Virus record (IMG/VR): IMGVR_UViG_3300025000_000058
DNA from: a virus
Lineage: Duplodnaviria > Heunggongvirae > Uroviricota > Caudoviricetes
Length of the DNA stretch: 64,000 nt
Strand: one strand, 5' to 3'
The notes under the pieces are model-generated. The model searched no databases and was not told the origin of the DNA. It saw nothing but the letters and a program-made list of their open reading frames with translations. Below are positions 1 to 51,461 of this stretch, piece by piece (position 1 is the first letter of the stretch; each line of letters starts with the position of its first letter). The position numbers and the translations under genes were made by a program.

Positions 1-95
1 TCATACTCTGGTAAAAATTCTCCTGCTGGTTTATAAACGATTATACACATAATAAAACCTCCTGTTTTTGTTTTAATTTTAAACATTTTAATTAA

Positions 96-170
96 AATGC
101 TTAATACAAGGCTTAAATTATTGATTGTTATTGTTTATGGATAATTTAAGCCTTCAATAAACATTCTTTT
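96..170. repeat. intergenic long hairpin element, B-type (stem AAGGCTTAAATTA / TAATTTAAGCCTT)
   Basis: Inverted repeat 108-120 pairs with 142-154. The conserved flanks AATGCTTAATACAAGG ... CCTTCAATAAACATTC are shared with elements at 366, 5367 and 7935. Confidence 0.6.
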
Positions 171-176
171 ATTTTT

Positions 177-332
177 TTATTTTCTTAAATCGTTAAGTAT
201 ATTCATAGCAATGATAATCATAAGTAAAATCACTTCATTGTTTGTAGGATTATTATTAAAAAATTTAATTGTACCACCTACAAGAACCCCAAATAAACAA
301 ATACCAGTTATTGTTTTAATATAACTCATCAT
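177..332 (-). CDS. small hydrophobic protein (51 aa), hypothetical
   Basis: ATG at 330-332 with GGAGG about 11 nt upstream; stop at 177-179. Flanked by two B-type hairpins. Not in the ORF track because it is under 60 aa. Confidence 0.3.
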   Translation of the reverse strand: MMSYIKTITGICLFGVLVGGTIKFFNNNPTNNEVILLMIIIAMNILNDLRK

Positions 333-365
333 TATTTAAATACCTCCTTTATTATTTTAAAATAA

Positions 366-420
366 ATACTTAATACAAGGCTTAAACATATTAGTAATTT
401 AAGCCTTCAATAAACATTTA
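366..420. repeat. intergenic hairpin element, B-type
   Basis: AAGGCTTAAA at 377-386 pairs with TTTAAGCCTT at 398-407. Flanks are the same as the element at 96-170. Confidence 0.6.
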
Positions 421-678
421 TTTTATACAGTCTATACATAACCATGCATCTTTATAAAAAAGCAAATCTACTGGCTTGCGACATGCTGTACAACATGGTT
501 TAAGAGTATATAGTTTACCTTTACAAATATAATTTCCTAATTGATAAACATTAGAATTATAAATACATTCAAACTTTAATATTTCTTCATTTGGTGGAGT
601 TTTCCGTTTATGTCCATAAGGTATTTGTCCTTTCCATTTTTTTTCATCTTCAGACCATAAATAATCTATTTTTGCCAT
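418..678 (-). CDS. Cys-rich zinc-ribbon protein, hypothetical
   Basis: 86-aa ORF with CxxC...CxxC pairs (CCTAC, CIDC). RBS CCTCC complement lies upstream. Confidence 0.45.
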   Translation of the reverse strand: MAKIDYLWSEDEKKWKGQIPYGHKRKTPPNEEILKFECIYNSNVYQLGNYICKGKLYTLKPCCTACRKPVDLLFYKDAWLCIDCIK

Positions 679-696
679 TGTATACTATACCCCTCC

Positions 697-804
697 TTAC
701 ACTTGTTTAATATCTTGTATATACCTTTGCTTGCAAATATTAATATGCTTAGGACTGTTACGACACTTATTTAAAAACAGACAACTAAAACATTTAGTGA
801 ACAT
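697..804 (-). CDS. small Cys-containing peptide (35 aa), hypothetical
   Basis: ATG at 802-804 preceded by GGAGGTATAATT; stop at 697-699. Confidence 0.25.
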   Translation of the reverse strand: MFTKCFSCLFLNKCRNSPKHINICKQRYIQDIKQV

Positions 805-837
805 AATTATACCTCCTATTATTTTTATTTTGTAAAA

Positions 838-906
838 CAAAAAGCCTTTATAATAAGCATTTACCTAATTGCATTTTGGCAGTAAATGCTTACATAAAAA
901 CTTCTT
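838..906. repeat. intergenic hairpin element, A-type (AAAGCCTTTA...palindrome...AAAAACTTCT)
   Basis: AAGCATTTAC pairs with GTAAATGCTT. Conserved outer flanks are shared with more than 10 other elements. Confidence 0.55.
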
Positions 907-918
907 AATATTTTGTTT

Positions 919-2388
919 TTATGCTAATTTTCTTTTTTGCAGGTATGCAAGTAATTCTTGGTAATTAAAATCATTAGCATAATTTATAATTGATTTCCAT
1001 GTTAAAGCTTGAATATGTTGAATATCTGTATTCCTTATTATATCTAATAAGGTTTGACAAAATTGCAATGTTGCGACAAATGTTTCATATTTCAATGTAC
1101 CTCTGAAAATACGTATTTCTACTGTGTTAAAAGGTTTTAAGTTTATGGCATGGAATCTTGAAGTGTCAGAATCTTTTGCTACTTCAAGCAATTCTTTTGC
1201 ATCATCTTGTGTATTATTAAGAATATTAAATCCGTATCTGTCACAATATTCCAGTTGTTTTTCTGTTCTACGTGAAAATTTAACAAACTTATTCCAATGC
1301 ATTTCTACAACAAGCAATAATTTTAATATATTTAGGTCTTGTTTATCCTCAGAAATTCCAAAAGCTTCTTTATTAATATGAATATGCAGACCACATGTTT
1401 CACAATCATGTGATTTATAATTCAAATCAATAGCTTCTTCCATTAATTCCTGCCACTTAAATTCTTTTAGGTGTTTTTCCAATGTTGCTGGATGACTAAC
1501 AATTTCAAAACCATCATCTATTGAAGCATCATTCTTAATATAAATATGATCTTCATCGTTATCATTCATTATGTCAAGCAATTTACTAGCATTTTCTTTG
1601 TCATCTCCTCCATTATCAATTTCCAGTTCAACACCAAAAAGGTCTAATTCGTTTTTGGTGTTTCTGTGAAATATAGGTTCTGGTTTATATGAATAATTAT
1701 GTATTTTACCCTTGTGTTTTGGATAGCATTTGTCACAATAATCTTCCCAGTCAATTTGATTTCTTCCATTGTTTCCATTGCACCAACAACCACAATCACT
1801 ACATCTTACTATGCTCTCATGGCATGAGTTACAAATGACTGTATTATAACTGTCACTATTACCTTGATCATCATTGTAAACATTGCCACACTCTTCACAC
1901 TTAAATGTATTATTGCTAAAACAATGTGAACAATAACAATTTTCATTATGGTCTTTTTTCTTATCATCAACGTGTGTTATATCTTCACAATGATAACAAG
2001 TAAAATAATTATCACCATAACAATCATTACAAACAAAAGTATGTCTGTCAATTTGTGTCATATCATCTTTTAAATGGTATTGATCGCATTCTTTGCACTG
2101 TTTATAGTTATCATTCAAACATTCTTCACAAACATAAACATACTCGTTACTTCCTCCAACATCTGTCATATCATTGGTTATAAAATATTCACCACATTCT
2201 GTACATTCTGTATAATTTTCTAAGCACTCTTTACATACTTTGTCACCAGAGTTTACAACTGTTAAAAAATTGTCAAATTTCCTGTTTCCACATTCTTCAC
2301 ATACACCAATAGCAAATAATTTAAGCTCTGTATGTCTTTGAATTATGTTTTTGCTGGGAATTAATTTCTTGTATTTCATTAGACACAA
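919..2388 (-). CDS. zinc-ribbon array fused to a GS-like amidoligase (Amidoligase_2 family)
   Basis: The N-terminal 230 aa hold more than 12 CxxC pairs. The C-terminal half carries GVELE (metal-binding strand), DDGFEIVSHP, CGLHIHI (the GxHxH hallmark) and EIRIFRGT, which are diagnostic of glutamine-synthetase-like amidoligases. Confidence 0.7.
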   Translation of the reverse strand: MCLMKYKKLIPSKNIIQRHTELKLFAIGVCEECGNRKFDNFLTVVNSGDKVCKECLENYTECTECGEYFITNDMTDVGGSNEYVYVCEECLNDNYKQCKECDQYHLKDDMTQIDRHTFVCNDCYGDNYFTCYHCEDITHVDDKKKDHNENCYCSHCFSNNTFKCEECGNVYNDDQGNSDSYNTVICNSCHESIVRCSDCGCWCNGNNGRNQIDWEDYCDKCYPKHKGKIHNYSYKPEPIFHRNTKNELDLFGVELEIDNGGDDKENASKLLDIMNDNDEDHIYIKNDASIDDGFEIVSHPATLEKHLKEFKWQELMEEAIDLNYKSHDCETCGLHIHINKEAFGISEDKQDLNILKLLLVVEMHWNKFVKFSRRTEKQLEYCDRYGFNILNNTQDDAKELLEVAKDSDTSRFHAINLKPFNTVEIRIFRGTLKYETFVATLQFCQTLLDIIRNTDIQHIQALTWKSIINYANDFNYQELLAYLQKRKLA

Positions 2389-2427
2389 CCTCCTGTTATA
2401 TTGATATTTTAAATTTACAGACTTTTT

Positions 2428-2504
2428 AAAAAGCCTTTATACTGCACACTAATATGTTAATATGTTGGAATTAGTGTACAGATTAAAAACTTCTTTTAAT
2501 TATG
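2428..2504. repeat. intergenic hairpin element, A-type
   Basis: CTGCACACTAAT at 2443-2454 pairs with ATTAGTGTACAG at 2471-2482. The right half is copied again at 2650-2682. Confidence 0.55.
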
Positions 2505-2649
2505 ATACTTAATATGTCCTTCTGTATCAATTTCCATATATTTGAATTTATTTTTACTATTTATACTAATATATACTTTTGTCCCTACATCATCAGTTCC
2601 TAAATATTCCCATTTTGCAGTATCAATTTTAATCATTTTATACCTCCTT

Positions 2650-2682
2650 AGAATTAGTGTACAGATTAAAAACTTTTTACTT
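2650..2682. repeat. partial copy (right half) of hairpin element 2428-2504
   Basis: GAATTAGTGTACAGATTAAAAACTTTT duplicates 2468-2494. Confidence 0.5.
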
Positions 2683-3051
2683 TTTATTAATTATATATTT
2701 TTCATAACACTTATCACAATATATTTTTCCTTTTCCATCATCTCCTGTTTTTTCAACGTGCATTTTTTCACCACAATAAAGACATTTAACATGGTTAATT
2801 CTGAATGGATTAACGCATCTTTTTGCAAAATTCCATTTACATTCATTGTCATCAATTCCTAAAGCATCAAATAATTTCATTCTTAACACATTTAATTCCG
2901 CACTTGTCCCATACGTTTCTTGCAATTCTTGAACATGTTCAATTAATAATTCTGCCTTGTCTCTTTTTACTAACATTAAATTTGTTTCTGCAAGCACTGA
3001 AGATAATACATTTCCCAATTCTACATTGTTTTTATTATTGTTGTTTTCCAT
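2677..3051 (-). CDS. hypothetical protein with C-terminal zinc ribbon
   Basis: 124-aa ORF. CLYCGEKMH...CDKC near the C-terminus. Good RBS context. Confidence 0.45.
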   Translation of the reverse strand: MENNNNKNNVELGNVLSSVLAETNLMLVKRDKAELLIEHVQELQETYGTSAELNVLRMKLFDALGIDDNECKWNFAKRCVNPFRINHVKCLYCGEKMHVEKTGDDGKGKIYCDKCYEKYIINKK

Positions 3052-3080
3052 TAATAAAACCTCTTTTCGTATTTTATTTT

Positions 3081-3153
3081 GTTAAAGCAAAAAGTTTTTA
3101 GAATGGATATTTACTGTGATAACAATAAGTAAATATCCATGTTAAAAACTTCT
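3081..3153. repeat. intergenic hairpin element, A-type
   Basis: GGATATTTACT pairs with AGTAAATATCC. Flanks are GTTAAAGCAAAAAGTTTTTAGAAT and ATGTTAAAAACTTCT. Confidence 0.55.
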
Positions 3154-3154
3154 T

Positions 3155-3595
3155 TTAATATTTCTTATCTCCAAACAATGCACACTGAATAATTATATTA
3201 CACATTTCATCAGTGTATAATGTTTCGTCAGAAAGAAAATAATTATACTTTTCCATATATACTTTTAAACCTTTTTTTAATTTTACGAGTGTTAAGGTAT
3301 ATTTTTCCACATTATCTTTATATTCATTTTTAACATCTTGAAATAACAAACTGCCACCAGCGACAAGAATTAATGTAGGGTTATTTGATTCTAAATTCAA
3401 TCTAAGACACATTTCTTGCTCTTTTTTTGGCAATTTTTTGGTAGGCTGTTTAATAATTTCAATATTATTGCACCAATATTGTTTACTTTTGTTAATTCCT
3501 TTTTTCATAATACGATTAATATCGAATAAATTTATAAAACTACTCACTTTTACCTTTATTTCATAGTCTGTAAACATATTAAAACCTCTTTTCAT
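3155..3595 (-). CDS. hypothetical protein
   Basis: 146-aa ORF in a same-strand array. RBS AGAGG upstream. Confidence 0.4.
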   Translation of the reverse strand: MKRGFNMFTDYEIKVKVSSFINLFDINRIMKKGINKSKQYWCNNIEIIKQPTKKLPKKEQEMCLRLNLESNNPTLILVAGGSLLFQDVKNEYKDNVEKYTLTLVKLKKGLKVYMEKYNYFLSDETLYTDEMCNIIIQCALFGDKKY

Positions 3596-3605
3596 ATTAT
3601 TATTT

Positions 3606-3676
3606 TGTTAAAGCAAAAAGTTTTTAGAATAGACACTTCGAATTAAATAATAAAGTGTCTATGTTAAAAACTTCTC
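3606..3676. repeat. intergenic hairpin element, A-type
   Basis: ATAGACACTT pairs with AAGTGTCTAT. Outer flanks are identical to the element at 3081. Confidence 0.55.
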
Positions 3677-3698
3677 TTTACCTTATGTGTTTATTATA

Positions 3699-4097
3699 TT
3701 AAAAATTATCATAATACTCTCTCCAATCACCACTTTCTATTTTGTTACACCTGTCTAATATGTCATAGTTAAGAATATAAACATATGCCAATATTGTTAT
3801 ACCCTCATTATCAAACACTTCTTTTAATTCCCTGTGATATCCTGCACCTGATTCAATACGATCCAATTCTTTTAATATTGTTTCAAAATATTCAGGTAAA
3901 ATATAATATAATTCGCCATGTATTTTACCTTTTCCTGGTATAATGCCAGGATAAGTCCATAATTCATACATGTCAAATCCTTGTAAGATAGCTTTTTTCA
4001 TTTCTGAAAAAATGTTTCGAATTCTGAAGTGATTACCAAAACCTTGCATCAGTGAACCATACATAAATAATGGATATTGTTTTTCAGTTTTTTTCAT
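3699..4097 (-). CDS. gamma-glutamyl cyclotransferase-like (GGCT/AIG2 family) protein
   Basis: N-terminal PLFMYGSLMQG (the YGSL motif) and a downstream acidic LDRIESG segment about 75 aa later, typical of GGCT/AIG2. 132 aa. Confidence 0.65.
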   Translation of the reverse strand: MKKTEKQYPLFMYGSLMQGFGNHFRIRNIFSEMKKAILQGFDMYELWTYPGIIPGKGKIHGELYYILPEYFETILKELDRIESGAGYHRELKEVFDNEGITILAYVYILNYDILDRCNKIESGDWREYYDNF

Positions 4098-4122
4098 TAA
4101 TAAAACCTCCTGTTTTTAATTT

Positions 4123-4189
4123 TAAAGCCTTTAGAATAGATACTTGTATAATATACAATATTATACAAGTATCCAGTGTTAAAAGCTTT
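4123..4189. repeat. intergenic hairpin element, A-type
   Basis: GATACTTGTATAAT pairs with ATTATACAAGTATC. Flanks are AAAGCCTTTAGAAT and CAGTGTTAAAAGCTTT. Confidence 0.55.
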
Positions 4190-4384
4190 TCATAATGTTG
4201 TTTTTAATCCTAATTGATTTAATAAATTCTTTATACTTTTTATATGCTGGTTTGGTTCTGCTTCTTGATCATCCACTAATATCCCTACTTTATCTCTCAT
4301 AGATTTTAACTTCATAATTCTTAAATTTAATTCTTCTTCTATTACATATAAATCATACTTAGATAAAATAATTTTATATTCCAT
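4190..4384 (-). CDS. hypothetical small protein
   Basis: 64-aa ORF with RBS. Confidence 0.35.
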   Translation of the reverse strand: MEYKIILSKYDLYVIEEELNLRIMKLKSMRDKVGILVDDQEAEPNQHIKSIKNLLNQLGLKTTL

Positions 4385-4412
4385 GAATAAAACCTCCTGT
4401 TTAATTTTTATT

Positions 4413-4484
4413 TTAAAGCTTTTAGAATAGACATATTAACATTATTATTAATAATTATTAATATGTCCAGTGTTAAAAGCTTCT
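4413..4484. repeat. intergenic hairpin element, A-type
   Basis: The outer stem AAAGCTTTT/AAAAGCTT and an inner stem GACATATTAA/TTAATATGTC are separated by an internal loop. Confidence 0.55.
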
Positions 4485-4745
4485 TTACACTCTTCTTCCT
4501 TTACTATATCCATCAAAATATTCATTTCCAGAATTAATGTTATTCTCTGTAATAAAATCATAACCCATATTTGACATCCATTTGATCATAGTCATTTTGG
4601 GATATCCTGTAAATATACCAGTTATAGGTATTTCTTTACTTGAAAATTGATAATAAGGTACATCATCTTTAAACCCCATAAATAACAGTGTCGTGAGTTT
4701 TGTTACTCTGTTTTTGAAAATCAGACATTTGTTTCTTTTATACAT
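4485..4745 (-). CDS. hypothetical protein
   Basis: 86-aa ORF. Confidence 0.35.
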   Translation of the reverse strand: MYKRNKCLIFKNRVTKLTTLLFMGFKDDVPYYQFSSKEIPITGIFTGYPKMTMIKWMSNMGYDFITENNINSGNEYFDGYSKGRRV

Positions 4746-4843
4746 ATGAAAACCTCCTTTTAATTTGAAAACCTTACATTAACAAGTATGCTAAATGTTA
4801 AAAATAAATGTTTCTAATGTTTTCATTTATTCAATTGCTCATT

Positions 4844-4903
4844 GTTAATGAATAAAGCCTTTAGAATAAGCATTAACAATAATTTTGTTAATGCTCAGTG
4901 TTA
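4844..4903. repeat. intergenic hairpin element, A-type
   Basis: AAGCATTAACAA pairs with TTGTTAATGCT, inside conserved flanks. Confidence 0.55.
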
Positions 4904-4909
4904 AAAGCC

Positions 4910-5326
4910 TTATTTAATTATGGTTGTTAAAGCTTCATAATATAAATCAGCTAACATTTCCTTTATATCTTGACAATCTTTTCTTATATACCCTTTTCTA
5001 TTTGAAAATTTTCCTTTAATTTGTAGATCTATTCCATGCTGAAGGTCTGGTGTAATAATAACCTGAAAATCAATCCATCCATCATAAAACCCATTATCAT
5101 CCATAACATGATAAAAACTATTAATTGTTATTTTATTCCTGTTTGATTTTTCCATGTTAATACTATTACCACTATCAATACCACTGCCAGAAGGTAAAAA
5201 AGATATTAGCGTTCTTAAATTATCTCTATGCTCTTCGGTTACTTCTTTGTCCATGTCTACCATTTTTTCACAATTTTTTACTGCTTGAATTCTCATAGCA
5301 ATTTTTACATATAATTTTTCTGTCAT
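4910..5326 (-). CDS. hypothetical protein
   Basis: 138-aa ORF. Confidence 0.4.
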   Translation of the reverse strand: MTEKLYVKIAMRIQAVKNCEKMVDMDKEVTEEHRDNLRTLISFLPSGSGIDSGNSINMEKSNRNKITINSFYHVMDDNGFYDGWIDFQVIITPDLQHGIDLQIKGKFSNRKGYIRKDCQDIKEMLADLYYEALTTIIK

Positions 5327-5366
5327 TATTAAAACCTCCTGTTATAGTTATATTTTTTAACATAAT

Positions 5367-5426
5367 ACTTGATACAAGGCTTAAACATATAAAATAATGC
5401 AGTGTTTAAGCCTTCAACAAATATTA
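5367..5426. repeat. intergenic hairpin element, B-type
   Basis: CTTGATACAAGGCTTAAAC ... GTTTAAGCCTTCAACAAATATT. Confidence 0.55.
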
Positions 5427-5428
5427 TA

Positions 5429-5743
5429 TTAACTTGTATAAGTATATACTTTTACACCATCACCACAATCAGACATTTTTACCATAATACCAGAAAAATA
5501 AGTCTGTGAAGAATAACCAGAAAATTCTTGCATCCACTCAGGAGCATTTTTTTCGACACGCATAATTTCACTTAAAAAATAGGTATTTCCTTCATGTTCA
5601 AAACAAGCTTCAAATTCCTGTTCGTCTTCTGGTTTATCTTTTTCCCACTCAGGTATTTTATAATCTATTTCTATATATTCATCATCTCCATAAATTTTTA
5701 TAGTGCTATTTTCTTGGTCAATTGTTTTCCATAATTTACTCAT
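5429..5743 (-). CDS. hypothetical acidic protein
   Basis: 104-aa ORF. Confidence 0.4.
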   Translation of the reverse strand: MSKLWKTIDQENSTIKIYGDDEYIEIDYKIPEWEKDKPEDEQEFEACFEHEGNTYFLSEIMRVEKNAPEWMQEFSGYSSQTYFSGIMVKMSDCGDGVKVYTYTS

Positions 5744-5777
5744 AAATAAAAACCTCCTGTTATATTAAAATTTTTAA

Positions 5778-5847: not shown

Positions 5848-6192
5848 TTATAATCCCTTTTCTAAAATGTCACCTATGCAACCTAAGCGAAGCTTACTCT
5901 TGTAGAATAATATTGTAGTTGTATAAGTGTCCCCTGCATTAATATATTGTACTTCTTCTGGATCTGTTATACCTTCAACACCAAAAAATGAACCCCTATT
6001 ACAATGAGTGTTTAACACTTTATCAATATCTTTTAACCAGTCTGCAATAGCATGAGAAGGATGATGTCCCTGTATATGATAATCTTTCCATGATTTTTTA
6101 ATGCATATTTCCCTTAATTCTTTTACTCCTTCCTTTGTTGTTATAGACAGATCATTTGCACACTGTTTAAAATTCTTTTGATTTATTACCAT
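5848..6192 (-). CDS. hypothetical protein
   Basis: 114-aa ORF. Confidence 0.4.
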   Translation of the reverse strand: MVINQKNFKQCANDLSITTKEGVKELREICIKKSWKDYHIQGHHPSHAIADWLKDIDKVLNTHCNRGSFFGVEGITDPEEVQYINAGDTYTTTILFYKSKLRLGCIGDILEKGL

Positions 6193-6221
6193 GTTAAAAC
6201 CTCCTGTTAAAATTTAATTTA

Positions 6222-6981: not shown

Positions 6982-7018
6982 AATTGTAAAACCTCCTATG
7001 TTATATTTAAAACCTTAA

Positions 7019-7085
7019 CAATAGGTACAATTAATTTAAACTCTTTAAAACAAGTCTATTAATTGTACCTATGTTTAAAATTTTA
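7019..7085. repeat. intergenic hairpin element (D-type), copy 1 of a 75-bp near-identical repeat
   Basis: Perfect 13-bp arms AGGTACAATTAAT / ATTAATTGTACCT. About 95% identical to 8629-8704. Confidence 0.6.
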
Positions 7086-7530: not shown

Positions 7531-7612
7531 TTAAATCAAAAAATGTTTTAATCATGGCATTTTATTGTCTGTTATAAGATTATAAATGCCATGTTTAAAA
7601 CATTCTTAGTTA
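7531..7612. repeat. intergenic hairpin element
   Basis: CATGGCATTT pairs with AAATGCCATG, inside flanks AAATCAAAAAATGTTTTAATC and GTTTAAAACATTCTT. Confidence 0.5.
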
Positions 7613-7950
7613 TTTTTATTCTGATTTCTAAAATAATCTTTTTCATACCATGATGTATATTGTTCTTTTGTTACATACTGTACATAATACCTATCTTTAT
7701 TATAATAAGGTTTTTTAGTACAGATATTAATATTTTTTTGATCTGTTCTGTTTTTTGCGTTGTCTTCAACTATACAAGCTTCAGAGTAAGAGCTACATTC
7801 AAAAACAAGCTTGTTAATTTTTCCCTTTGCTTTACCCCAACCAGACATAAATTTGTCAGTCATTGTTACATAATACTTTTTATTTTCTGGCATTGTTAAA
7901 AACCTCCTGTTATTATTGTTTAATTTTAAATCAAAAAATGCTTGATACAA
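7606..7950 (-). CDS. hypothetical protein
   Basis: 114-aa ORF. Confidence 0.4.
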   Translation of the reverse strand: MYQAFFDLKLNNNNRRFLTMPENKKYYVTMTDKFMSGWGKAKGKINKLVFECSSYSEACIVEDNAKNRTDQKNINICTKKPYYNKDRYYVQYVTKEQYTSWYEKDYFRNQNKNN

Positions 7951-8003
7951 GGGTTAAACAAGTAAATAATTTAACCCTTCAACAAACATTCTTTTACCTA
8001 TGC
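7935..8003. repeat. intergenic hairpin element, B-type with compensatory stem change
   Basis: The stem is AAGGGTTAAA / TTTAACCCTT here, against AAGGCTTAAA / TTTAAGCCTT in the other B-type copies. The C-to-G change on one arm is matched by G-to-C on the other, which preserves pairing. Confidence 0.6.
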
Positions 8004-8599: not shown

Positions 8600-8628
8600 A
8601 GTGTTTAAAACCTCCTGTTAATTATTAT

Positions 8629-8704
8629 AAAACCTTAACAATAGGTACAATTAATTTAAACTCTTTAAAACAAGTCTATTAATTATACCCATGTTTAAAA
8701 TTTT
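8629..8704. repeat. intergenic hairpin element (D-type), copy 2, degenerate stem
   Basis: Near-identical to 7019-7085, including the loop, but the right arm is mutated (ATTATACCC). Confidence 0.55.
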
Positions 8705-9227
8705 ATAACAAATGCTTATCTCTTTTATTGTCTTTTTCCTTTTTGGATTTTTTTGATTCTATTTTTTCAGATCCATAGATATTCCTAATTTTTTCCATTG
8801 GTATTGATTTTCTCCATTTTTTAGTTGTTTGGTCTTCAGAACACCAACTCCATAATTTTTTCTTACTTCTCCATATTAATCCAATTGCTTTTAATTCTTC
8901 CTTAATGGGCTTAGTTATTCCTCCTACCCACAGCCAAGAACCGCATATTTCTATTTCCAAGTCTTGGAATTTTAATAATGCATCAATAACTTCCCTGAAA
9001 AAATCATTAACATTGTGATTGTTAACATTAATAAATTCTTCACCAGACATTTTAATGTCTTTTAAATATTCGAAGGCTATTTCATAGTCTAAATTAATTC
9101 GCTTCATAATTTCCAGACACTTAGGGTCGCTGTTTAAATCAGGATGATACAATTTTGCAAGCTGTCTGTATTCCTTTTTCAATTCTACCAAGTTTTTACA
9201 TGATTTGAAGAATGTTAAATTTTTCAT
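8703..9227 (-). CDS. J-domain (DnaJ-like) protein
   Basis: ELKKEYRQLAKLYHPDLN contains the HPD tripeptide in a canonical J-domain helix II/III context. The C-terminus is lysine-rich. Confidence 0.75.
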   Translation of the reverse strand: MKNLTFFKSCKNLVELKKEYRQLAKLYHPDLNSDPKCLEIMKRINLDYEIAFEYLKDIKMSGEEFINVNNHNVNDFFREVIDALLKFQDLEIEICGSWLWVGGITKPIKEELKAIGLIWRSKKKLWSWCSEDQTTKKWRKSIPMEKIRNIYGSEKIESKKSKKEKDNKRDKHLL

Positions 9228-25902: not shown

Positions 25903-27624
25903 TTATAAGCTACTTAATACTCTGCCTCTGATATCTGCTAAACTATCATCTCTTAATAATTTGCCATCAACAAATACTTCTTCCAGTAAATCATCTGCTC
26001 TAAATAGAGCTTGTTGTGCAATTGATAATCCATCAATATATGTTATTTCATTTGTTGTTGAATCTTGAAGTACAACAACTCTGCCTTTTTGTGATTTTTT
26101 GATTTTGTCGAGATCAGTTTTCGGATTTTTAAAAATCAGTTTTTCTTTTCCATTTATTACTACGTGTGTTGCTTTAATAGCGATCATAAATGTATCTCTA
26201 CTATAATAACCTAGTGAATATGAACCTACACCAAATATAACATTTTCACTAGAAAATCCTTTTTGTTCTAGTTTTTTAAATATTTCTTCTGCTCTTTCTG
26301 GATTGATGCTGTCACCATATATAAGTGAAATATGTGAATCTAATACTTTATATCCTTTAGAATTAATTGTACCACCAAATATATCCCATAGTGATTCTAT
26401 TGAACCTTTTTGTTCTATAGTCAATTCTACTTCTTCACAACTTATTACCTGTGTATAATCAATATAATAATATTGTTTATCATACCTGTTCCATTCAAAT
26501 TCGACAATTATTTTATATATTTTATTATTATATTTGAAATACCCTTCATTTTTATCTACTCCATATTCTCCATGAGGTGTTTCATCTCTTACTTCTTCTT
26601 CTAAATATTCTTTCATCGTTTTAATACAATCATCTAATGTTTTACAATATTTATCATTTGTAAAATCTTCAACAATCACATTACCACAAATAATGTCAAC
26701 TGGATTGCCCGTATCTGGTCTTACGACCAGTTTACCATTTCTATTCATTATAATTTCTTTTAATTTTGGAATAATATTACCAATAACATTCCAATAATCA
26801 TATCCATCTGATACAATACTAACAATACCTTCAGGTACGATTTCAGTAATCATTTTTTTATAATATTTTAAATCATCCTCATATTGGCATTGAATCGAAT
26901 GCTCAGAAGCGAGTACGCTTGAAAATACTAGCTCTTCTTCAACATTGGCATTATAGTAATGCTCTAAATACTGAGTGCTTGGTATAGTATCTGAGCCTGT
27001 GAAATATAGTAAATGTCCTGCCCCTGTTGTTATTGCATCTTCATTGCAACCCATTCCTCTATAACTGAAGTTGTGACATTGCCATTTAATATGTTCTTTA
27101 CTATCGCATGTTTTTTCAGCCCATTTTTCACATATATCTCTATATTTTTTTACTATTGTTGTAGATGTTATTACTTTCCACATTGAAACACTTATAAGTG
27201 TTTCTAAATAATTTGTTAACCAATGAAATTCATTATTAGTATTTTCAATTGTAAACAATGGTGTTTTAATTGGTGCTAAAGTACCTTCTTTAAGAGCACG
27301 TATTTTAATTGGCAAATACCCTAAATCATGTAATGCTTCAATATGCTTAGTATCTGCACAATTATCCCCTAAAGTGTATTTAATAATTCTTTTATATTCT
27401 GTAATTACTTCTTCTTTGTTTCTACTAAAGAAATTTTCATTAAAGTATTCAATCAAATATTCTTTTATAAAACCTTGCAAACCAAAGAATACTACTTCAT
27501 TAATATCTTTTAATCTTGTCCCTCTTGGAGTAAATGTAGAATATGTTTTCTCAATTCCTTTTTCAGTCATAATTCTGTGAGATATTTTATAACAATCTAC
27601 TAATAACATTGGATTATATTTCAT
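25903..27624 (-). CDS. nadV: nicotinamide phosphoribosyltransferase (NAMPT, NadV-like)
   Basis: 573 aa. The N-terminal MLLVDCYKISH and overall length and architecture match NAMPT/PBEF. Conserved GTDT-like and phosphoribosyltransferase regions are present. Confidence 0.85.
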   Translation of the reverse strand: MKYNPMLLVDCYKISHRIMTEKGIEKTYSTFTPRGTRLKDINEVVFFGLQGFIKEYLIEYFNENFFSRNKEEVITEYKRIIKYTLGDNCADTKHIEALHDLGYLPIKIRALKEGTLAPIKTPLFTIENTNNEFHWLTNYLETLISVSMWKVITSTTIVKKYRDICEKWAEKTCDSKEHIKWQCHNFSYRGMGCNEDAITTGAGHLLYFTGSDTIPSTQYLEHYYNANVEEELVFSSVLASEHSIQCQYEDDLKYYKKMITEIVPEGIVSIVSDGYDYWNVIGNIIPKLKEIIMNRNGKLVVRPDTGNPVDIICGNVIVEDFTNDKYCKTLDDCIKTMKEYLEEEVRDETPHGEYGVDKNEGYFKYNNKIYKIIVEFEWNRYDKQYYYIDYTQVISCEEVELTIEQKGSIESLWDIFGGTINSKGYKVLDSHISLIYGDSINPERAEEIFKKLEQKGFSSENVIFGVGSYSLGYYSRDTFMIAIKATHVVINGKEKLIFKNPKTDLDKIKKSQKGRVVVLQDSTTNEITYIDGLSIAQQALFRADDLLEEVFVDGKLLRDDSLADIRGRVLSSL

Positions 27625-30261: not shown

Positions 30262-31098
30262 TTATAATTCAATAATATCAAATATATGCATTTTTTCAAT
30301 TGATATTTTTTCTTTATCTAAAATACTATTTGTAGTAAATACTTTATCAATTAAATCTGTTTGAAACAAATCTCCTTTAAAAATACTATATTCACAATGA
30401 GCAACAAATAAATATACTTCTTTTGCTCCCAATTCTTTTAATTTCTTAGCACTTATAATAAACGTCCCAGCATAACTTGATATATCATCCAAAATAATAA
30501 CTTTAGCATCTTTTATTAAATTAATATCCCCTACAATATCTAATTTATCAATTTTACCTGTGTTGAAGTCTCTTGATTTATACCCCACTAAATATTTAAA
30601 ACCTTTAATATTTTTATGTGCTTTCGCACTTCCATCATCAGGATAAAATAATATATCTTTTTCTTTATCAAATCCAATTTTATTCATTACTTCACCTAAC
30701 AATTCAATTGTTGGGTATACTGCTGTACTTTTATTCAATAAAGCCATTGATACATTAGAATGTGGACTAATGACTACAACACTGTTAAAATTTAATGAAT
30801 TAATAAAATTACAAATATATTTTAAAGTGAATGCTGAAGTTGTTTCATAATACCCTTCAACTCTATCCATTCTTGAGTATGGTAAATATAATATCTTTAA
30901 ATCACAGTCAACTCCTAAATTATTTTCATCTATATAATTTTTAAGAAACATTAATTTGATTAAATCACTTTCATCTTCATATTTAAATGTAATTTCATTA
31001 TTTATATTTATATCTCTCCAAATTTGTTCATTATCTATTCTAATTTCTCCATTAGGGTATTTTTCAAAATTAAGTCTTTCACCATTTAATAAAATCAT
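30262..31098 (-). CDS. prs: ribose-phosphate pyrophosphokinase (PRPP synthetase)-like
   Basis: VIILDDISSYAGTF PRPP-binding loop. Two-domain phosphoribosyltransferase-type architecture of about 280 aa. Confidence 0.65.
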   Translation of the reverse strand: MILLNGERLNFEKYPNGEIRIDNEQIWRDININNEITFKYEDESDLIKLMFLKNYIDENNLGVDCDLKILYLPYSRMDRVEGYYETTSAFTLKYICNFINSLNFNSVVVISPHSNVSMALLNKSTAVYPTIELLGEVMNKIGFDKEKDILFYPDDGSAKAHKNIKGFKYLVGYKSRDFNTGKIDKLDIVGDINLIKDAKVIILDDISSYAGTFIISAKKLKELGAKEVYLFVAHCEYSIFKGDLFQTDLIDKVFTTNSILDKEKISIEKMHIFDIIEL

Positions 31099-43659: not shown

Positions 43660-45636
43660 TTATTTTAACAAGCTCATAAATTGCTGTTCATTAATTATAA
43701 TACTATTCTTACTTTCTTCTGCTTTTTTCAACGTACCTCCTGGCTTATCTCCGACAATAACATAATTTACTTTTTTATTAAAACTCTTACTAAACACTCC
43801 ACCATTTGTAACAATTAATTCTTCAAAATATTTTCTTGGTTGTGATAACACTCCAGTTATTGTAAATACTAAACCTTCAATTCTACTATCACTTTTTATA
43901 TTGTTCTTTATCTTGTTTTCTTCATTATTAAATCTTAAATATTTTAATATCGCATATAATTGTAATAAATTATTTTGATTATTAAAATATTCATTTATAG
44001 ATCGTGCTGTTTCTATTCCTATGTCTTCAACATCTAATAATATATTTATTTTTGCATTAACAATATAATTAATATCGTTATTGAAATAATTGCATAATTT
44101 CTTAGCTGTAGTAATGCCAACATGATTTATACCAAGACCATAAATCAATCTATATAATTCCGTATCTTTTGATTTTTCAATTGATTTTAATATTTTATTG
44201 TAAGATTTCTCTCCAAACCCCTCTAACCAAAGTATTTCTTCTTTATATTGTTCAAGATTATATACGTCTGCAAACTCTGCAATAAAACCTTCTTCAACAA
44301 ATTTACTTATTGTAGCATCAGCAAGTCCTTTAATATTTAAAGCATCTTTCTCAATAAAATGACTTATTTTGTCTACTAATTTACCAAAGCAATTATTATT
44401 AGTGCATACCAATACAGTTGCTTCCTTCAACAATTTAAATTCTACATTATATCCACAATCAGGACAAAACTTTGGAAATTCAATTGTATTACTTCTTGTT
44501 AGATTGTCTTCTATTTTAGGAATTATAGAACCACGTTTACTAATTATAACAGTATCTCCATATCCTAATTGTAATTTTTTAATATAGTCTATATTATGCA
44601 ATGTAGCACGTTCTACTATTGTTCCATCAATCTCAATTGGTTCAAAGTGTCCTGTAGGATTTACAAAACCCCCTCTTGACGTATTCCATAATATATCAAT
44701 TAATTTTGTTTCATATACATCATCTTGAAATTTAAATGCAATTGCATCTAATGGATATTTACTTGTTTTTCCTAGTGATTCTGAATAAGCAATATCATTA
44801 TATTGAATCACGACTCCATCGTAACTAATACCTTTATCTTCTGCAATTTTTTTAACTTCATCAATACATTTTTCAGCATTAAATATCCATCCATTTGTTA
44901 TAATTATACTGGGTGCAGTTTGAAATCCTAATTCTAACAACCATTCTAATTGCTGTGTTTTTGTAGTAAATTTCATACCTTCAACAACTGATATTTTAAA
45001 TGCACGAAAATGTAGCTTTCTTTCTGCACATTTTCTACTGTCTAAATTTTTTACACTTCCTGATGCCAAATTTCTAGCAGTTTTATATTTTTCATTTTCA
45101 GAAAGACCCTCATTAATTTCTTCAAAATCTTTTAAATATATGTATGATTCACCTGCTATTTCCAAATATCCTTTAAATGGTATTTTTAAAGGCACATTTT
45201 TATATGTTCTAATATTATGCGTAATATCTTCTTGTCCTCTTGTTGAAGCTTCAATAAGAATACCATTATTATATTTAATATTTGTTGTAAGTCCATCTAT
45301 TTTTAAACTAGCATAACTTTCTTTTCCTTTAATAAATTCTTCAACACCTTTAATTGTCTTTTCTTTCTTTAAAGATATTAAGGGAATTGTATGTTTAACT
45401 TTTTTAAATTCATCAATCATTTCATAGTTAACTTTTTGCGTTGGGCTATTGCATAATACAAAATCCAATTTTTTCTCCAACATTTCTAATTCTTCATATA
45501 ATAAATCAAATTCTTTATCACTCATAATAGGTTGTGCTAAAGCATAATAACTAAAACAAGCGTTGTTTAATAGTTCAACTAAATATTTTATTCTTTCTTT
45601 TTTTATTGTTCTATCTTTATTTGTCATCTGTGTCAT
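43660..45636 (-). CDS. ligA: NAD+-dependent DNA ligase (LigA)
   Basis: Ia domain (YYALAQPIMSDKEFD), adenylation motif I KIDGLT, Cys4 zinc finger CPDCG...CTNNNC, HhH region and C-terminal BRCT (ITGVLS...VIVGDKPG). 658 aa. Confidence 0.9.
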   Translation of the reverse strand: MTQMTNKDRTIKKERIKYLVELLNNACFSYYALAQPIMSDKEFDLLYEELEMLEKKLDFVLCNSPTQKVNYEMIDEFKKVKHTIPLISLKKEKTIKGVEEFIKGKESYASLKIDGLTTNIKYNNGILIEASTRGQEDITHNIRTYKNVPLKIPFKGYLEIAGESYIYLKDFEEINEGLSENEKYKTARNLASGSVKNLDSRKCAERKLHFRAFKISVVEGMKFTTKTQQLEWLLELGFQTAPSIIITNGWIFNAEKCIDEVKKIAEDKGISYDGVVIQYNDIAYSESLGKTSKYPLDAIAFKFQDDVYETKLIDILWNTSRGGFVNPTGHFEPIEIDGTIVERATLHNIDYIKKLQLGYGDTVIISKRGSIIPKIEDNLTRSNTIEFPKFCPDCGYNVEFKLLKEATVLVCTNNNCFGKLVDKISHFIEKDALNIKGLADATISKFVEEGFIAEFADVYNLEQYKEEILWLEGFGEKSYNKILKSIEKSKDTELYRLIYGLGINHVGITTAKKLCNYFNNDINYIVNAKINILLDVEDIGIETARSINEYFNNQNNLLQLYAILKYLRFNNEENKIKNNIKSDSRIEGLVFTITGVLSQPRKYFEELIVTNGGVFSKSFNKKVNYVIVGDKPGGTLKKAEESKNSIIINEQQFMSLLK

Positions 45637-48177: not shown

Positions 48178-48837
48178 CTAATATTTATATAACCATTTCC
48201 ACCAACCAGTATTACTTGCCATATTTAAACATTCCCATTTACATTTATCATATTGTCCTTTTATATTTACATGATAATGACCAAAATAGTATTTTCTTAT
48301 ACTCGGATACATTTCTAATATTCTTGACAATGCAACTCTACTACAATCTTTATGTTTTTGAGTATCTTTGAATCTATCTCCTAAATCAAATTCTAATGGA
48401 CATGTATGTGATATTACGATATCTATTTTTGTATTTGTTGAGGGAAGATTCTCAAAATCTTTTTGCGATATAACTTCTTGCGGAAACCAGTCTACTCCAA
48501 TTGTTCTTGTATTTTTATCAATTGATTCAGCACCACCCATAAACAGTACAACTTTCCCATTGGGAAGAGTTAATGTAGAACCACGTTTCATATAAAATAT
48601 ATTTGGTGCAATTTCATTATTTGTAAGAGTATTTAAATAATCATGGTGTTCATGATTTCCATCTGCAAAATATATTTTACAATCACCGTTTTTAATTTTA
48701 TCTAAAGAACATTCTTTATGATATGGCCATATTCCAAAGTCTCCACATTGTAATATAATATCTGGTTTTTTCTTATTTATTAAAGTATTTAATTTATTCC
48801 ATTCTGCATGAATATCTCCAACAATTATTAATTTCAT
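48178..48837 (-). CDS. calcineurin-like metallophosphoesterase
   Basis: MKLIIVGDIHAEW (motif I GDxHG), QCGDFG (GDxxDRG-like) and GNHEHHD (GNHE). Confidence 0.75.
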   Translation of the reverse strand: MKLIIVGDIHAEWNKLNTLINKKKPDIILQCGDFGIWPYHKECSLDKIKNGDCKIYFADGNHEHHDYLNTLTNNEIAPNIFYMKRGSTLTLPNGKVVLFMGGAESIDKNTRTIGVDWFPQEVISQKDFENLPSTNTKIDIVISHTCPLEFDLGDRFKDTQKHKDCSRVALSRILEMYPSIRKYYFGHYHVNIKGQYDKCKWECLNMASNTGWWKWLYKY

Positions 48838-48853
48838 TTATTCATTTCTCCTT

Positions 48854-49444
48854 TTAATTAAATAATTCATAATTATTTTCTAATTTTCCATCTCCAACAA
48901 TAAATATTTTACTTCCACAATCATATAAACAATCACTAATTTCTTTTATATTTAAAGATATAATATAATCATAATAACTACTTTTTACCCTTATAAATCT
49001 CATTGTTTCATATCCTCTTTTTATCCTAATTACTAAATTATAAAATTTATAAGCTTCTCTAATAACAATTGCATTGTCATTCATTTTTAATCTTTTAATT
49101 TTCTTTTGAATAAAATTGAATTGTTTTCTATTTTCTTTAATATCTTCATCATCCCAATATTTTGTTTTCTTAAAATCTGCTCCATCAACATCAATAACTC
49201 TAATAGCATCAAAATGGTAAGGAAAATTTTTATCATAACCTTTACATGTTTCACAAAAATGACTTGTGATAAATAAATCATTTATTCCCCATTGAGTATA
49301 TAGCTCTTGATATATTTTATTAATAATACTTAATGGAATTTTCTTTTTTGTTGAAGTTTCAATATTATACCCATAATTTTTACCTGCATAATCAACAAAC
49401 CATTTTATAAACTTATTAAAGTATATTCTTTCAAATCTTGTCAT
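48854..49444 (-). CDS. hypothetical protein
   Basis: 196-aa ORF lying between the phosphatase and the ligase-like gene. Confidence 0.4.
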   Translation of the reverse strand: MTRFERIYFNKFIKWFVDYAGKNYGYNIETSTKKKIPLSIINKIYQELYTQWGINDLFITSHFCETCKGYDKNFPYHFDAIRVIDVDGADFKKTKYWDDEDIKENRKQFNFIQKKIKRLKMNDNAIVIREAYKFYNLVIRIKRGYETMRFIRVKSSYYDYIISLNIKEISDCLYDCGSKIFIVGDGKLENNYELFN

Positions 49445-49567
49445 TGTTTTTACTCTCCTTTTTATTTGATTTATTAAGTAATTTTTAATTCATTTTTAAT
49501 TAAAGCATTATTTTTCCAATGAATATCTGTTTGCACATGATTTTTTCTAACATACTTAACAACTGAT

Positions 49568-50119
49568 TTATAAAAAATCATCTACAATAAAACTGTCTTT
49601 TATTCTAATTACATATCCTTCTTGTAAGCCACCGCATTTACTTATCCCTGTAAACAAGTTTTTAATAATATCTATATTATATATTCCTTCATACAAAATA
49701 GGAACAGTTTGTAAATTTAATAATTCACACCATTCTAATGTTTCTTCCCACGACAAACAACAATCATTTTCCCATATTGAAAATACTAATAAATATGATA
49801 GCAATTCATTATAACGAATACTATGCTTAGCATATAAATTTTCACCACAAACTCTATAATTTTCAGGTATATCATGTTTTATTATGCTATGTAGTTTTTT
49901 AATTGCATGTTGTGATATATGATTTTTACTGTTTATTGAACGAGCATGGTAATAATTAAAATATAAATTTGTATTTTCACCATCCATTTTTTCTGTTACT
50001 ACAATCTCTTTGTTATAAAAATTAGATAAATCATATAATACTTTATCATCAGATGATATTCCTTCTGACCAAGGTAAATGTAATGTTCTAGGATATTTAT
50101 ATAGTTTCATAATGCTCAT
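49568..50119 (-). CDS. RNA-ligase-like covalent nucleotidyltransferase (minimal, NTase domain only)
   Basis: YKYPRTLHL followed by VVTEKMDGEN (motif I KxDGxN) and GLQEGYVIRIKD (motif IV EGYV plus K). 183 aa. Confidence 0.5.
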   Translation of the reverse strand: MSIMKLYKYPRTLHLPWSEGISSDDKVLYDLSNFYNKEIVVTEKMDGENTNLYFNYYHARSINSKNHISQHAIKKLHSIIKHDIPENYRVCGENLYAKHSIRYNELLSYLLVFSIWENDCCLSWEETLEWCELLNLQTVPILYEGIYNIDIIKNLFTGISKCGGLQEGYVIRIKDSFIVDDFL

Positions 50120-50122
50120 TCC

Positions 50123-50485
50123 TTATTCTTTTTTACTTTTACACTCATATTCAACACATTTCCCTAATCTTCTACTTATAATCTCTCTTAAAAACTTTTG
50201 CTCCCAATCCATAAACCCAATTGGGTGCTTTGTTAATTCACAATATTTATTCACAGCTATTTCATGCTCATTAAATATAAAACATATTTCATCAATAGAC
50301 AATTCACCTCTGGATACTAGCACTCTTAGTGCTTGAATGATATTATTTGTTGATACTTTTATAATTATATCTCTATTATTTTGTTCAATTTTCTTTTTAT
50401 ATTGGTCTATTATAAACTGTGCATTTTCAAGAAGATTAAAATCTGAATATGGATTACCTTGTTCACAATATATAATTTTTAGCAT
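50123..50485 (-). CDS. hypothetical protein
   Basis: 120-aa ORF. Confidence 0.4.
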   Translation of the reverse strand: MLKIIYCEQGNPYSDFNLLENAQFIIDQYKKKIEQNNRDIIIKVSTNNIIQALRVLVSRGELSIDEICFIFNEHEIAVNKYCELTKHPIGFMDWEQKFLREIISRRLGKCVEYECKSKKE

Positions 50486-50502
50486 AATTTTTTATCTCCT
50501 TT

Positions 50503-51444: not shown

Positions 51445-51461
51445 TTATAAAACCTCCATTC

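Follow-up and report, generated by a model that had tools for sequence, protein, structure and literature searches.

The locus analysed here raises the question of which proteins act together with a phage ligase that carries an array of zinc fingers at its N-terminus. The window, i.e. the whole stretch of 64,000 nucleotides taken from the IMG/VR virus record IMGVR_UViG_3300025000_000058 (Caudoviricetes), encodes this protein (ligase A) close to its left edge at 919..2379 on the minus strand, and a GGACT/AIG2-like gamma-glutamyl(amine) cyclotransferase at 3699..4097 on the same strand. An earlier note, prepared from the sequence alone, regarded the two as a putative peptide or metabolite tagging system. 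According to the comparison with related loci the constant partner of the zinc-array ligase is a class-II glutamine amidotransferase/N-terminal nucleophile (GATase-II/Ntn) protein and not the cyclotransferase. With a rough probability of 0.4 we favour a two-subunit glutamine-dependent amidoligase that would dock on a protein target, with the cyclotransferase (hereafter GGACT) as an optional accessory.

Ligase A and its catalytic domain

The two open reading frames (ORFs) lie where the earlier note had placed them, at 919-2388(-) and 3699-4097(-). The longest ORF of the ligase gene starts with TTG at 2388. Based on a conserved GGAGG motif 9 nt upstream of the ATG at 2379 and on the length of the database protein P0001, which corresponds to ligase A and likewise comprises 486 aa, this ATG is the true start. 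The predicted protein combines a zinc-finger array of six modules with an Amidoligase_2 domain, as supported by Pfam, PHROG, AlphaFold2 and Foldseek.

The catalytic domain (aa 226-486 and the stop codon; 919..1704, minus strand) was delimited by the Pfam match, by invariant residues and by structural comparison. The match to Amidoligase_2 (PF12224) covers aa 280-447 and reaches 42.6 bits at a cut-off of 22 bits (E 8.9e-11). PHROG amidoligase families match the protein as well, and phrog_16683, a family with no assigned function, spans aa 147-487. In an alignment of 59 homologues, from which residue conservation was read, G249, E251, E253, D284, S286, G290, E292, H332, H334, R408, E421 and R423 are invariant, and ligase A keeps all family-invariant acidic, histidine and arginine residues. 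The motifs GVELE, DDGFEIVSHP, CGLHIHI and EIRIFRG, which the earlier note had read as an amidoligase signature, are all found in the translation and fall on invariant columns. By analogy only, the conserved acidic, histidine and arginine residues may serve in metal and ATP binding.

The AlphaFold2 model of ligase A has a mean predicted local distance difference test (pLDDT) score of 88.5. In a Foldseek comparison of the catalytic half with the PDB, YbdK/GCS2 (1r8g and 1tt4) ranked on top, followed by Dop, glutamine synthetase (GS), GmaS and PafA; a sequence search of the PDB with ligase A gave no match even at E <= 1. As judged from the model the C-terminal half is a GS-fold carboxylate-amine ligase domain, as the earlier note had expected. 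Taking the E-values of the hidden Markov models (HMMs), the strict periodicity of the CxxC motifs and the confidence of the AlphaFold2 model together, a chance origin of the ligase, GGACT and array signals is excluded.

The constant partner of the ligase

Related loci were sampled from IMG/VR (79), from the best matches in bacterial genomes (80, L089-L168) and from metagenomes (80), about 240 in all. For the count of ligase-GATase pairs the 79 IMG/VR loci were combined with 9 contig look-ups to a set of 88 loci, which together with the first 12 kb of the window also formed the input for the clustering of ORFs. A GATase-II/Ntn gene follows the ligase gene immediately downstream and on the same strand in 74 of the 88 loci, mostly at a distance of 0-30 nt. 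The same adjacency was observed in 76 of the 80 bacterial-genome loci and in 67 of the 80 metagenome loci. The partner proteins comprise about 300-330 aa and begin with MCGLFG... or MCII..., and one subgroup exceeds the Pfam cut-offs for GATase_6, GATase_7 and GATase_4.

The window contains only the first 16 codons of this gene, MCIIVYKPAGEFLPEY, as recognised from the translation (1..50, minus strand), and the remainder lies past the left edge, which is why the partner was missed by the earlier note. The full gene of this phage was found at L006:8687-9529, 0.87 kb downstream of ligase A, and encodes P0121 (280 aa). P0121 itself stays under the Pfam cut-off (13.3 versus 23 bits), and a comparison of its subgroup with the partners that pass GATase_6 or GATase_7 gave a hhalign probability of 96% across the HxR, N-HPF and HNG motifs. 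The protein begins with MC and retains H75-x-R77, H114-N115-G116 and S128-D129-T130. Its AlphaFold2 model reaches pLDDT values above 90 over most of aa 1-200 and was matched by Foldseek to the glutaminase domains of GlmS/GFAT, to EgtC and to PurF. An NCBIfam scan of eight module proteins returned only weak GlmS-like matches, to P0121 and to L143:9092-10030. P0121 is a stand-alone class-II glutamine-amidotransferase/Ntn protein with an N-terminal cysteine nucleophile.

The pairing is also present in Mycobacteriophage Marvin, in which gp105 and gp106 represent the same ligase-GATase pair without the zinc array. Furthermore, large phages have two ligase copies that enclose one GATase gene. In the phage analysed here the second ligase is a zinc-array paralogue of 520 aa and 40% identity (ligase B, P0010; L006:10001-11563), located after the GATase-II gene. 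Ligase B is basic, with isoelectric points (pI) of 8.2 for the array and 8.9 for the catalytic domain, whereas ligase A is acidic. An ancient orthologous pair of ligases A and B shared with the phage locus L013 was considered and rejected; the bit scores suggest lineage-specific duplications instead.

The cyclotransferase as a rare accessory

The product of 3699..4097 (132 aa) matches Pfam GGACT (PF06094) over its full length with 84.9 bits (cut-off 22.8 bits, E 8e-24) and is also matched by phrog_2520; relatives in the PDB are YtfP, YkqA and PH0828. The YGSL motif (Y13, G14, S15 and L16; aa 13-16) is present, and six phage GGACTs all share Y13, G14 and E82. E82 aligns with the glutamate of the LDDFE motif in mouse GGACT (1vkb) and with that of AIG2 (2jqv), and we take the equivalent residue to be catalytic, as in human GGACT and gamma-glutamyl cyclotransferase (GGCT). 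A protein of the GGCT fold encoded about 1.3 kb from the ligase in the same unidirectional array, with the intervening ORFs all on the same strand, is thereby borne out together with its catalytic-position glutamate.

What did not hold is the pair as a conserved system. Of the 79 IMG/VR loci only L013 and L061 showed GGACT near the ligase, and neither the 80 bacterial-genome nor the 80 metagenome loci had it; the clade of the window (L003, L004, L006 and L007) carries it as well. These counts cover the flanks retrieved for each locus and were obtained with HMMs built from phage GGACTs. The ligase and GGACT do not form a conserved unit, and GGACT is a rare or optional accessory.

Given this rarity, its closeness to the ligase could be a coincidence in a dense array of accessory genes, with GGACT being an unrelated neighbour. 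Nearly all related loci lack it, three ORFs with a ribosome-binding site each separate it from the ligase in the window, and phage G possesses GGCT genes with no annotated amidoligase close by. However, all GGACT ORFs that turned up in the flanks of the approximately 240 loci adjoin a module gene, and in all three lineages that carry it GGACT lies within the module and on the same strand. Its position is retained in L003, the ligase of which is 71% identical to that of the window and is separated from GGACT by a single ORF. In L013 (124 kb, with a higher GC content) the order is GGACT, ligase, GATase-II and ligase with short gaps, GGACT being located 111 nt upstream of the ligase. In L061:4300-7417 a zinc-array ligase is followed by a RadC-type JAB peptidase, GATase-II and GGACT, and the last two genes overlap. 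Moreover, a cultured Bacillus phage has a GGCT gene with an amidoligase encoded 1.1 kb upstream, and GGCT also belongs to clusters of the LUZ24 type. A merely coincidental neighbourhood is thus considered unlikely, and GGACT seems to be functionally linked to the module where it is present.

The number of independent cases is limited by a small gene common to L061 and the clade of the window. The 114-aa protein encoded at 7606-7950(-) in the window is 59% identical to the protein encoded immediately before the ligase gene of L061 (L061:3898-4185), and its family was found only in these two of the three GGACT lineages. The linkage in both may stem from one ancestral block, so that the independent GGACT lineages number two or three, which lends some weight to the coincidental reading. 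The RadC-type JAB protein of L061 represents a third kind of amide-cleaving enzyme in the module.

The ORFs around the ligase differ in their relation to the module. Between GGACT and the ligase, a 124-aa ORF (2677..3051, minus strand) is a candidate module member; it contains one C-terminal CxxC...CxxC ribbon of the array type, and its matches to LIM and MCM_WH are weak and remain below the cut-offs. A homologue of 151 aa occupies the same position in L003-L005, and the L003 copy scores against the ligase profile. The 146-aa ORF at 3155..3595 (minus strand) yielded no match in Pfam, PHROG, NCBIfam or PADLOC; it probably does not belong to the module, given that in L003 GGACT and the ligase are a single ORF apart. 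Between the ligase and GATase-II genes are an 86-aa ORF (418..678, minus strand) with a C-terminal cysteine-rich ribbon (CCTAC...CIDC) and no Pfam or PHROG family match, and an ORF for a hydrophobic protein of 51 aa (177..332, minus strand), both of which hold this position in L001 and L006, too. The ligase is thus flanked by two small ORFs (2677-3051 and 418-678) that each end in a single CxxC...CxxC ribbon like a unit of the array.

The zinc-finger array and the nature of the target

The array extends over aa 27-218 of ligase A (1726..2301, minus strand) and contains 12 CxxC motifs starting at aa 27, 49, 59, 84, 95, 117, 128, 150, 161, 183, 193 and 215. As start-to-start distances of about 22 residues alternate with distances of about 10-11 residues, the motifs are predicted to pair into six Cys4 zinc modules, rather than the dozen or more separate zinc ribbons counted in the earlier note. 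The assignment of the individual cysteines to zinc ions within the modules is inferred from this sequence pattern. In the AlphaFold2 model every module appears as beta-hairpins followed by a short helix, and the block-mean pLDDT amounts to about 81-96 over residues 21-200 and to about 63-81 at the last module.

Foldseek matched the model to the tandem LIM domains of LMO2, LMO4, PINCH and FHL2 with probabilities of 0.9-1.0, and these matches are attributed to the N-terminal half of ligase A. Pfam LIM (PF00412) gave no match of ligase A above the threshold; some of its homologues do score with this family. The presumed ligands of the array are all cysteines and the linkers between the modules comprise 6-7 residues, and the canonical C2HC-C4 pattern of LIM with its 2-residue spacer is missing. 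On the basis of the model the array is LIM-like by fold and not a member of the LIM family.

Its fusion to the ligase is not the peculiarity it appeared to be in the earlier note. At a limit of E <= 1e-5 a protein search with ligase A yielded 4,981 clustered proteins. Almost all of the 120 best homologues have 6-17 CxxC motifs ahead of GVELE, the commonest form among them having six motifs in about 365 aa. In the database BFVD the full-length fold recurs in many phage proteins labelled 'Amidoligase enzyme', and in one labelled 'LIM domain containing protein'. A large family, spread over phages and integrative elements of Clostridia, has the zinc-array fusion as its standard architecture.

The earlier note left open whether the array would direct the ligase to nucleic acids or to proteins. 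The former would imply that the array binds DNA or RNA and that a modified base or an RNA end is amidated or aminoacylated. Zinc ribbons are often nucleic-acid binders, the array of ligase B is basic, and RNA-repair genes occur near the ligase in L008 (Thg1 and a metallophosphoesterase) and in the Clostridioides phage AR1086-1 (KptA and RlaP), while the window itself has genes for Thg1, Metallophos, RNA ligase and PTH2. However, the RNA-repair genes of the window are 46 kb away and such genes are non-adjacent in most loci. Furthermore, the array of ligase A has a net charge of -24 over 192 aa (pI 4.3), the arrays of 97% of 118 homologues are acidic as well, with a median of -0.2 charges per residue, and its top structural matches are tandem LIM domains of the protein-binding type. 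Due to the acidic character and this fold match a nucleic-acid target is very improbable, and a protein rather than DNA is the favoured docking partner. The array looks like a protein-docking rod or spacer rather than a nucleic-acid binder.

Proposed function of the module

The near-obligate and often overlapping arrangement of the ligase and GATase genes is the reason why a two-subunit glutamine-dependent amidoligase is favoured, as a tight coupling of this kind is typical of glutaminase-synthetase heteromers. The characterised GS-fold enzymes matched by Foldseek, namely YbdK/GCS2, GS, GmaS and PafA/Dop, all convert a glutamyl gamma-carboxylate to an acyl-phosphate that is attacked by ammonia or an amine, class-II GATases free the amide nitrogen of a gamma-glutamyl compound by means of Cys1, and GGACT-type enzymes cyclise gamma-glutamyl-amines to 5-oxoproline. 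By analogy with these enzymes we infer that gamma-glutamyl amide chemistry is common to the ligase, GATase-II and GGACT proteins.

Ligase A and the Ntn protein would accordingly be expected to assemble into one enzyme, the Ntn subunit of which would split glutamine and pass on the amide nitrogen. The ligase would use ATP to phosphorylate a gamma-glutamyl-type carboxylate and turn it into the amide. The substrate would probably be a cytoplasmic protein or a peptide-like target gripped by the zinc-finger rod. Where present, GGACT may, again by analogy, strip gamma-glutamyl groups from amines as 5-oxoproline and thereby edit or recycle the products of the ligase. The likely role would be in the conflict of the phage or mobile element with its host, i.e. 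takeover, exclusion or anti-defence, and housekeeping nitrogen metabolism is less likely. A search with the PADLOC defence-system models gave no match among the eight module proteins.

Several points weigh against a two-subunit amidoligase. The zinc array may only be a spacer or an oligomerisation element. In this phage two small ORFs part ligase A from the GATase gene, so that there is no translational coupling, and some relatives have no GATase. Among the latter is the cultured Clostridioides difficile phage AR1086-1 (L170; OR397124.1), in which a zinc-array amidoligase of 370 aa, annotated as hypothetical (99895-101007), is followed by an RlaP-family nucleotidyltransferase, and KptA, an RNA 2'-phosphotransferase, is encoded 4 kb upstream of the ligase. 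Canonical GATase-II amidotransferases have their acceptor domain fused at the C-terminus, and stand-alone relatives such as EgtC are gamma-glutamyl hydrolases. Taking into account that EgtC is among the structural matches of P0121, the partner could serve as an eraser instead of supplying ammonia. GGACT also points to products that are gamma-glutamyl-amines with a free alpha-amino group, and simple amidation yields none. Finally, the literature covered reports neither an activity nor a complex nor a substrate of a family member.

The main rival of the two-subunit amidoligase is a pair of writer and eraser, which refines the tagging idea of the earlier note. The ligase would tie the gamma-carboxyl group of glutamate to a target amine, for example a protein lysine, and so create a gamma-glutamyl isopeptide tag. 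The Ntn protein would hydrolyse the bond in the manner of EgtC and GGACT would cyclise the tag to 5-oxoproline, both serving as erasers or recyclers, comparable to PafA/Dop and BtrJ/BtrG. The resemblance of the GS-fold ligase to PafA/Dop and YbdK fits this scheme, as does the Ntn partner, which matches EgtC and retains the residues gripping a free gamma-glutamyl moiety. The protein-binding type of the LIM-like array, the position of GGACT inside the module in three lineages and the RadC-type JAB peptidase between ligase and GATase in one lineage are in line with it, too. Characterised GGACT cuts gamma-glutamyl-epsilon-lysine, and BtrG takes off a gamma-glutamyl protecting group. However, GGACT is missing from about 99% of the related loci and is consequently not part of a core mechanism; a near-obligate, often overlapping coupling of writer and eraser would be futile unless regulated; and neither a tag protein nor a modified target is known. 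This explanation is possible but regarded as doubtful.

A further alternative assumes a small-molecule or cell-wall substrate. The module would then produce a soluble peptide-like metabolite, gamma-glutamylate a polyamine or another amine, or amidate or extend a peptidoglycan precursor against superinfection, and the array would be structural only. The literature interprets the modules of LUZ24-like phages and phiEco32 in this way, and GmaS and EgtC are among the fold matches. A GS-like ligase with a hydrolase of the glutamine-amidotransferase type forms the core of amine gamma-glutamylation by PuuA/PuuD, by GmaS with N-methylglutamate (NMG) synthase and by EgtA/EgtC, and peptidoglycan carboxylates are amidated by the glutamine-dependent enzymes MurT/GatD and AsnB/LtsA. 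Nevertheless, a rod of three to more than eight zinc modules across thousands of proteins is hard to explain by such a function, and the ATP-grasp and COOH-NH2_lig partners of the LUZ24-type clusters were seen neither in the window nor in the related loci. The one paper that proposes an auxiliary metabolic gene role in nitrogen metabolism is speculative and contains no enzymology, which likewise counts against a small-molecule substrate. It therefore seems improbable that the module acts on small molecules or the cell wall.

Copies on bacterial mobile elements

The 80 best genome loci belong almost exclusively to Clostridia, with Oscillospiraceae represented and one contig assigned to an Alistipes metagenome-assembled genome, and Ruminococcus flavefaciens carries several ligase copies per genome. 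Genes for tyrosine integrases, a MobA/VirD2 relaxase, HTH_17 excisionase-type proteins, a D5/VapE-type primase and a TraG-like ATPase are found in the neighbourhood, suggesting that the bacterial operon is cargo of integrative, mobilisable elements.

In 45 of these 80 loci a DUF960 protein of 94 aa is encoded directly upstream of the zinc-array ligase (e.g. L153:2354-2638), and DUF960 also occurs in L015, L017, L029, L033, L037-L039, L045 and L051. The C-terminus of the proteins from the Clostridia elements almost always reads ...TMLLAEEY. By analogy, the conserved -EEY end of a protein encoded beside an amidoligase recalls the substrates of C-terminal ligases. As far as the literature matches show, staphylococcal cassette chromosomes contain a DUF960 gene as well. 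The homologue search with DUF960 returned close relatives only and no relative in the PDB, and a search for DUF960 in the window found none. An 86-aa protein of L061 ending in ...TILLPEDY was rejected as a DUF960 relative; the likeness is confined to the C-terminus and is not supported by BLASTP.

By analogy with pupylation and tubulin tyrosination, the module might more generally be a protein-modification system of mobile elements. The zinc rod would pick a protein of the host or of the element to which the ligase would add an amide or gamma-glutamyl mark, or, in Clostridia, the ligase might instead target the -EEY end of DUF960; Ntn, GGACT and JAB proteins would process or erase the mark, by which a host function would be disarmed or rewired. 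In this extended form the proposal is quite improbable.

The host phage and the surroundings of the module

The window has a GC content of 26%, and over its first 52 kb or so nearly all genes are located on the minus strand. Its sequence recurs on contigs of the Rifle groundwater metagenome with lengths of up to 174 kb. Among the larger ORFs, matches to phage families include a NAD-dependent DNA ligase (43660-45636), a RecD-like helicase, PhoH, an FtsK-like ATPase, NAMPT-like and phosphoribosyl-pyrophosphate (PRPP)-synthetase-like proteins, an integrase-like protein and a homing endonuclease. Thg1, RNA ligase, PTH2, metallophosphoesterase, DNA methylase, a radical-SAM protein and HU were matched as well. 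Based on these matches to phage families and accessory-type genes the window represents an accessory-gene region of a large phage.

The NAMPT-like protein (573 aa; 25903-27624, minus strand) is encoded near the ribose-phosphate-pyrophosphokinase-like protein (278 aa; 30262-31098, minus strand), both assigned by matches to phage families. Presumably this pair resembles the phage NAD+ reconstitution pathways that have been described as counter-defence.

The genes for the metallophosphoesterase (Metallophos; 48178-48837, minus strand), the integrase-like protein (50503-51444, minus strand) and the Thg1-like protein (51462-52232, minus strand) form a cluster at 48178-52232(-). Together with the RNA-ligase and PTH2 genes, Thg1 and the metallophosphoesterase make up an RNA-repair set. 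A similar set of Thg1, Metallophos, YodL and integrase genes is present in L008:1117-4529, an unrelated phage locus with a zinc-array ligase. At about 52300 the GC skew and the AT skew switch sign and the genes turn from the minus to the plus strand, which is a point of divergent transcription or a replication-related switch.

Nearly every gene of the minus-strand array shares an extended ribosome-binding site, AACAGGAGGTTTT on the coding strand, copies of which were located at 49-68, 2388-2400, 4097-4116, 5326-5345, 5744-5763, 6191-6210, 7894-7913 and 8602-8621. Several families of intergenic repeats were also observed, with copies at 80-171, 349-424, 5348-5431 and 7921-7996, at 4150-4186, 4444-4480 and 4872-4908, and at 7008-7085 and 8628-8705. 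One family of about 90 nt holds the inverted repeat AAGGCTTAAA...TTTAAGCCTT, and one repeat pair is 97% identical across 78 nt. The repeats may be promoters, terminators or processing sites of the gene array. A promoter and terminator scan of positions 1-5000 of the window yielded promoter-like sites at or below the level of shuffled controls and no terminators, and is uninformative at 26% GC.

Relation to known systems and implications

Phage modules of amidoligase, class-II GATase, GGCT and ATP-grasp proteins are said to have been predicted in silico by Iyer, Abhiman, Burroughs and Aravind in 2009. The class itself is therefore not new, and the earlier note was right in describing phage amidoligase-GGCT combinations as a prediction that has not been characterised experimentally.

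Modules of amidoligase and GATase-II, with or without GGCT and ATP-grasp, have repeatedly been annotated in phage genomes (LUZ24-like phages, phiEco32, Marvin and OM43). We found no experimental study of the family in the literature and no relevant link to anti-defence, the leading region or LIM. The module shares with those of the 2009 type a phage-borne Amidoligase_2 ligase with an adjacent class-II GATase and, in some cases, GGCT/AIG2. It differs from them in the N-terminal LIM-like zinc array of the ligase and, in large phages, in the duplication of the ligase around one GATase, and from the LUZ24-type cluster in that no ATP-grasp or COOH-NH2_lig gene was seen.

Among characterised enzymes, YbdK/GCS2 provides the best structural match of the catalytic domain, and EgtA-EgtC of ergothioneine synthesis likewise combines a GS-fold ligase and a GATase-II-type protein on gamma-glutamyl chemistry. 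Unlike the module, YbdK and EgtA-EgtC are chromosomal, act on small molecules, have no zinc arrays and are not located on mobile elements. With PafA/Dop the ligase shares the GS-like fold (Foldseek probability 0.9-1.0), and that system also pairs a ligase with an amidase and uses a protein-borne glutamyl gamma-carboxylate. However, the TM-score is about 0.25 and no PDB sequence was matched, so that ligase A is not a member of this family; neither a Pup-like gene nor a proteasome context was seen, and the amidase of the module is of the Ntn/GATase-II type and not a PafA paralogue.

The array resembles the tandem LIM proteins LMO2, LMO4, PINCH and FHL2 in being a rod of consecutive two-knuckle zinc modules, and is distinguished from them by its all-cysteine ligands, its very acidic character and linkers of 6-7 residues instead of the 2 within a LIM domain. 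YGSL and the conserved glutamate connect the GGACT of the window with the GGACT/AIG2 family (human GGACT, E. coli YtfP, B. subtilis YkqA and BtrG of butirosin synthesis), from which it differs by its short length (132 aa) and by being encoded on a phage; for YtfP and YkqA, its closest relatives with a solved structure, no function has been assigned either.

New in comparison with these systems are the finding that a large subfamily regularly has the LIM-like acidic array at its N-terminus, GATase-II as the constant partner together with the two-ligase variant of large phages, and the lineage-specific accessory genes GGACT, RadC-JAB and DUF960-EEY. The approximately 5,000 clustered relatives are found almost exclusively on phages and integrative or mobilisable elements, and some Clostridia of the rumen and gut have several copies in one genome. 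With ligase and GATase-II/Ntn protein as the conserved unit, the choice of proteins for co-expression and of chemistries for assays is altered. Clostridioides phage AR1086-1, Mycobacteriophage Marvin gp105/gp106 and Ruminococcus flavefaciens FD-1 offer tractable systems. As a targeting device, an acidic LIM-like zinc rod is unusual for an enzyme of a prokaryote or virus, and if it is true that the rod selects protein substrates, a post-translational modification system would be added to the conflict between phages and their hosts.

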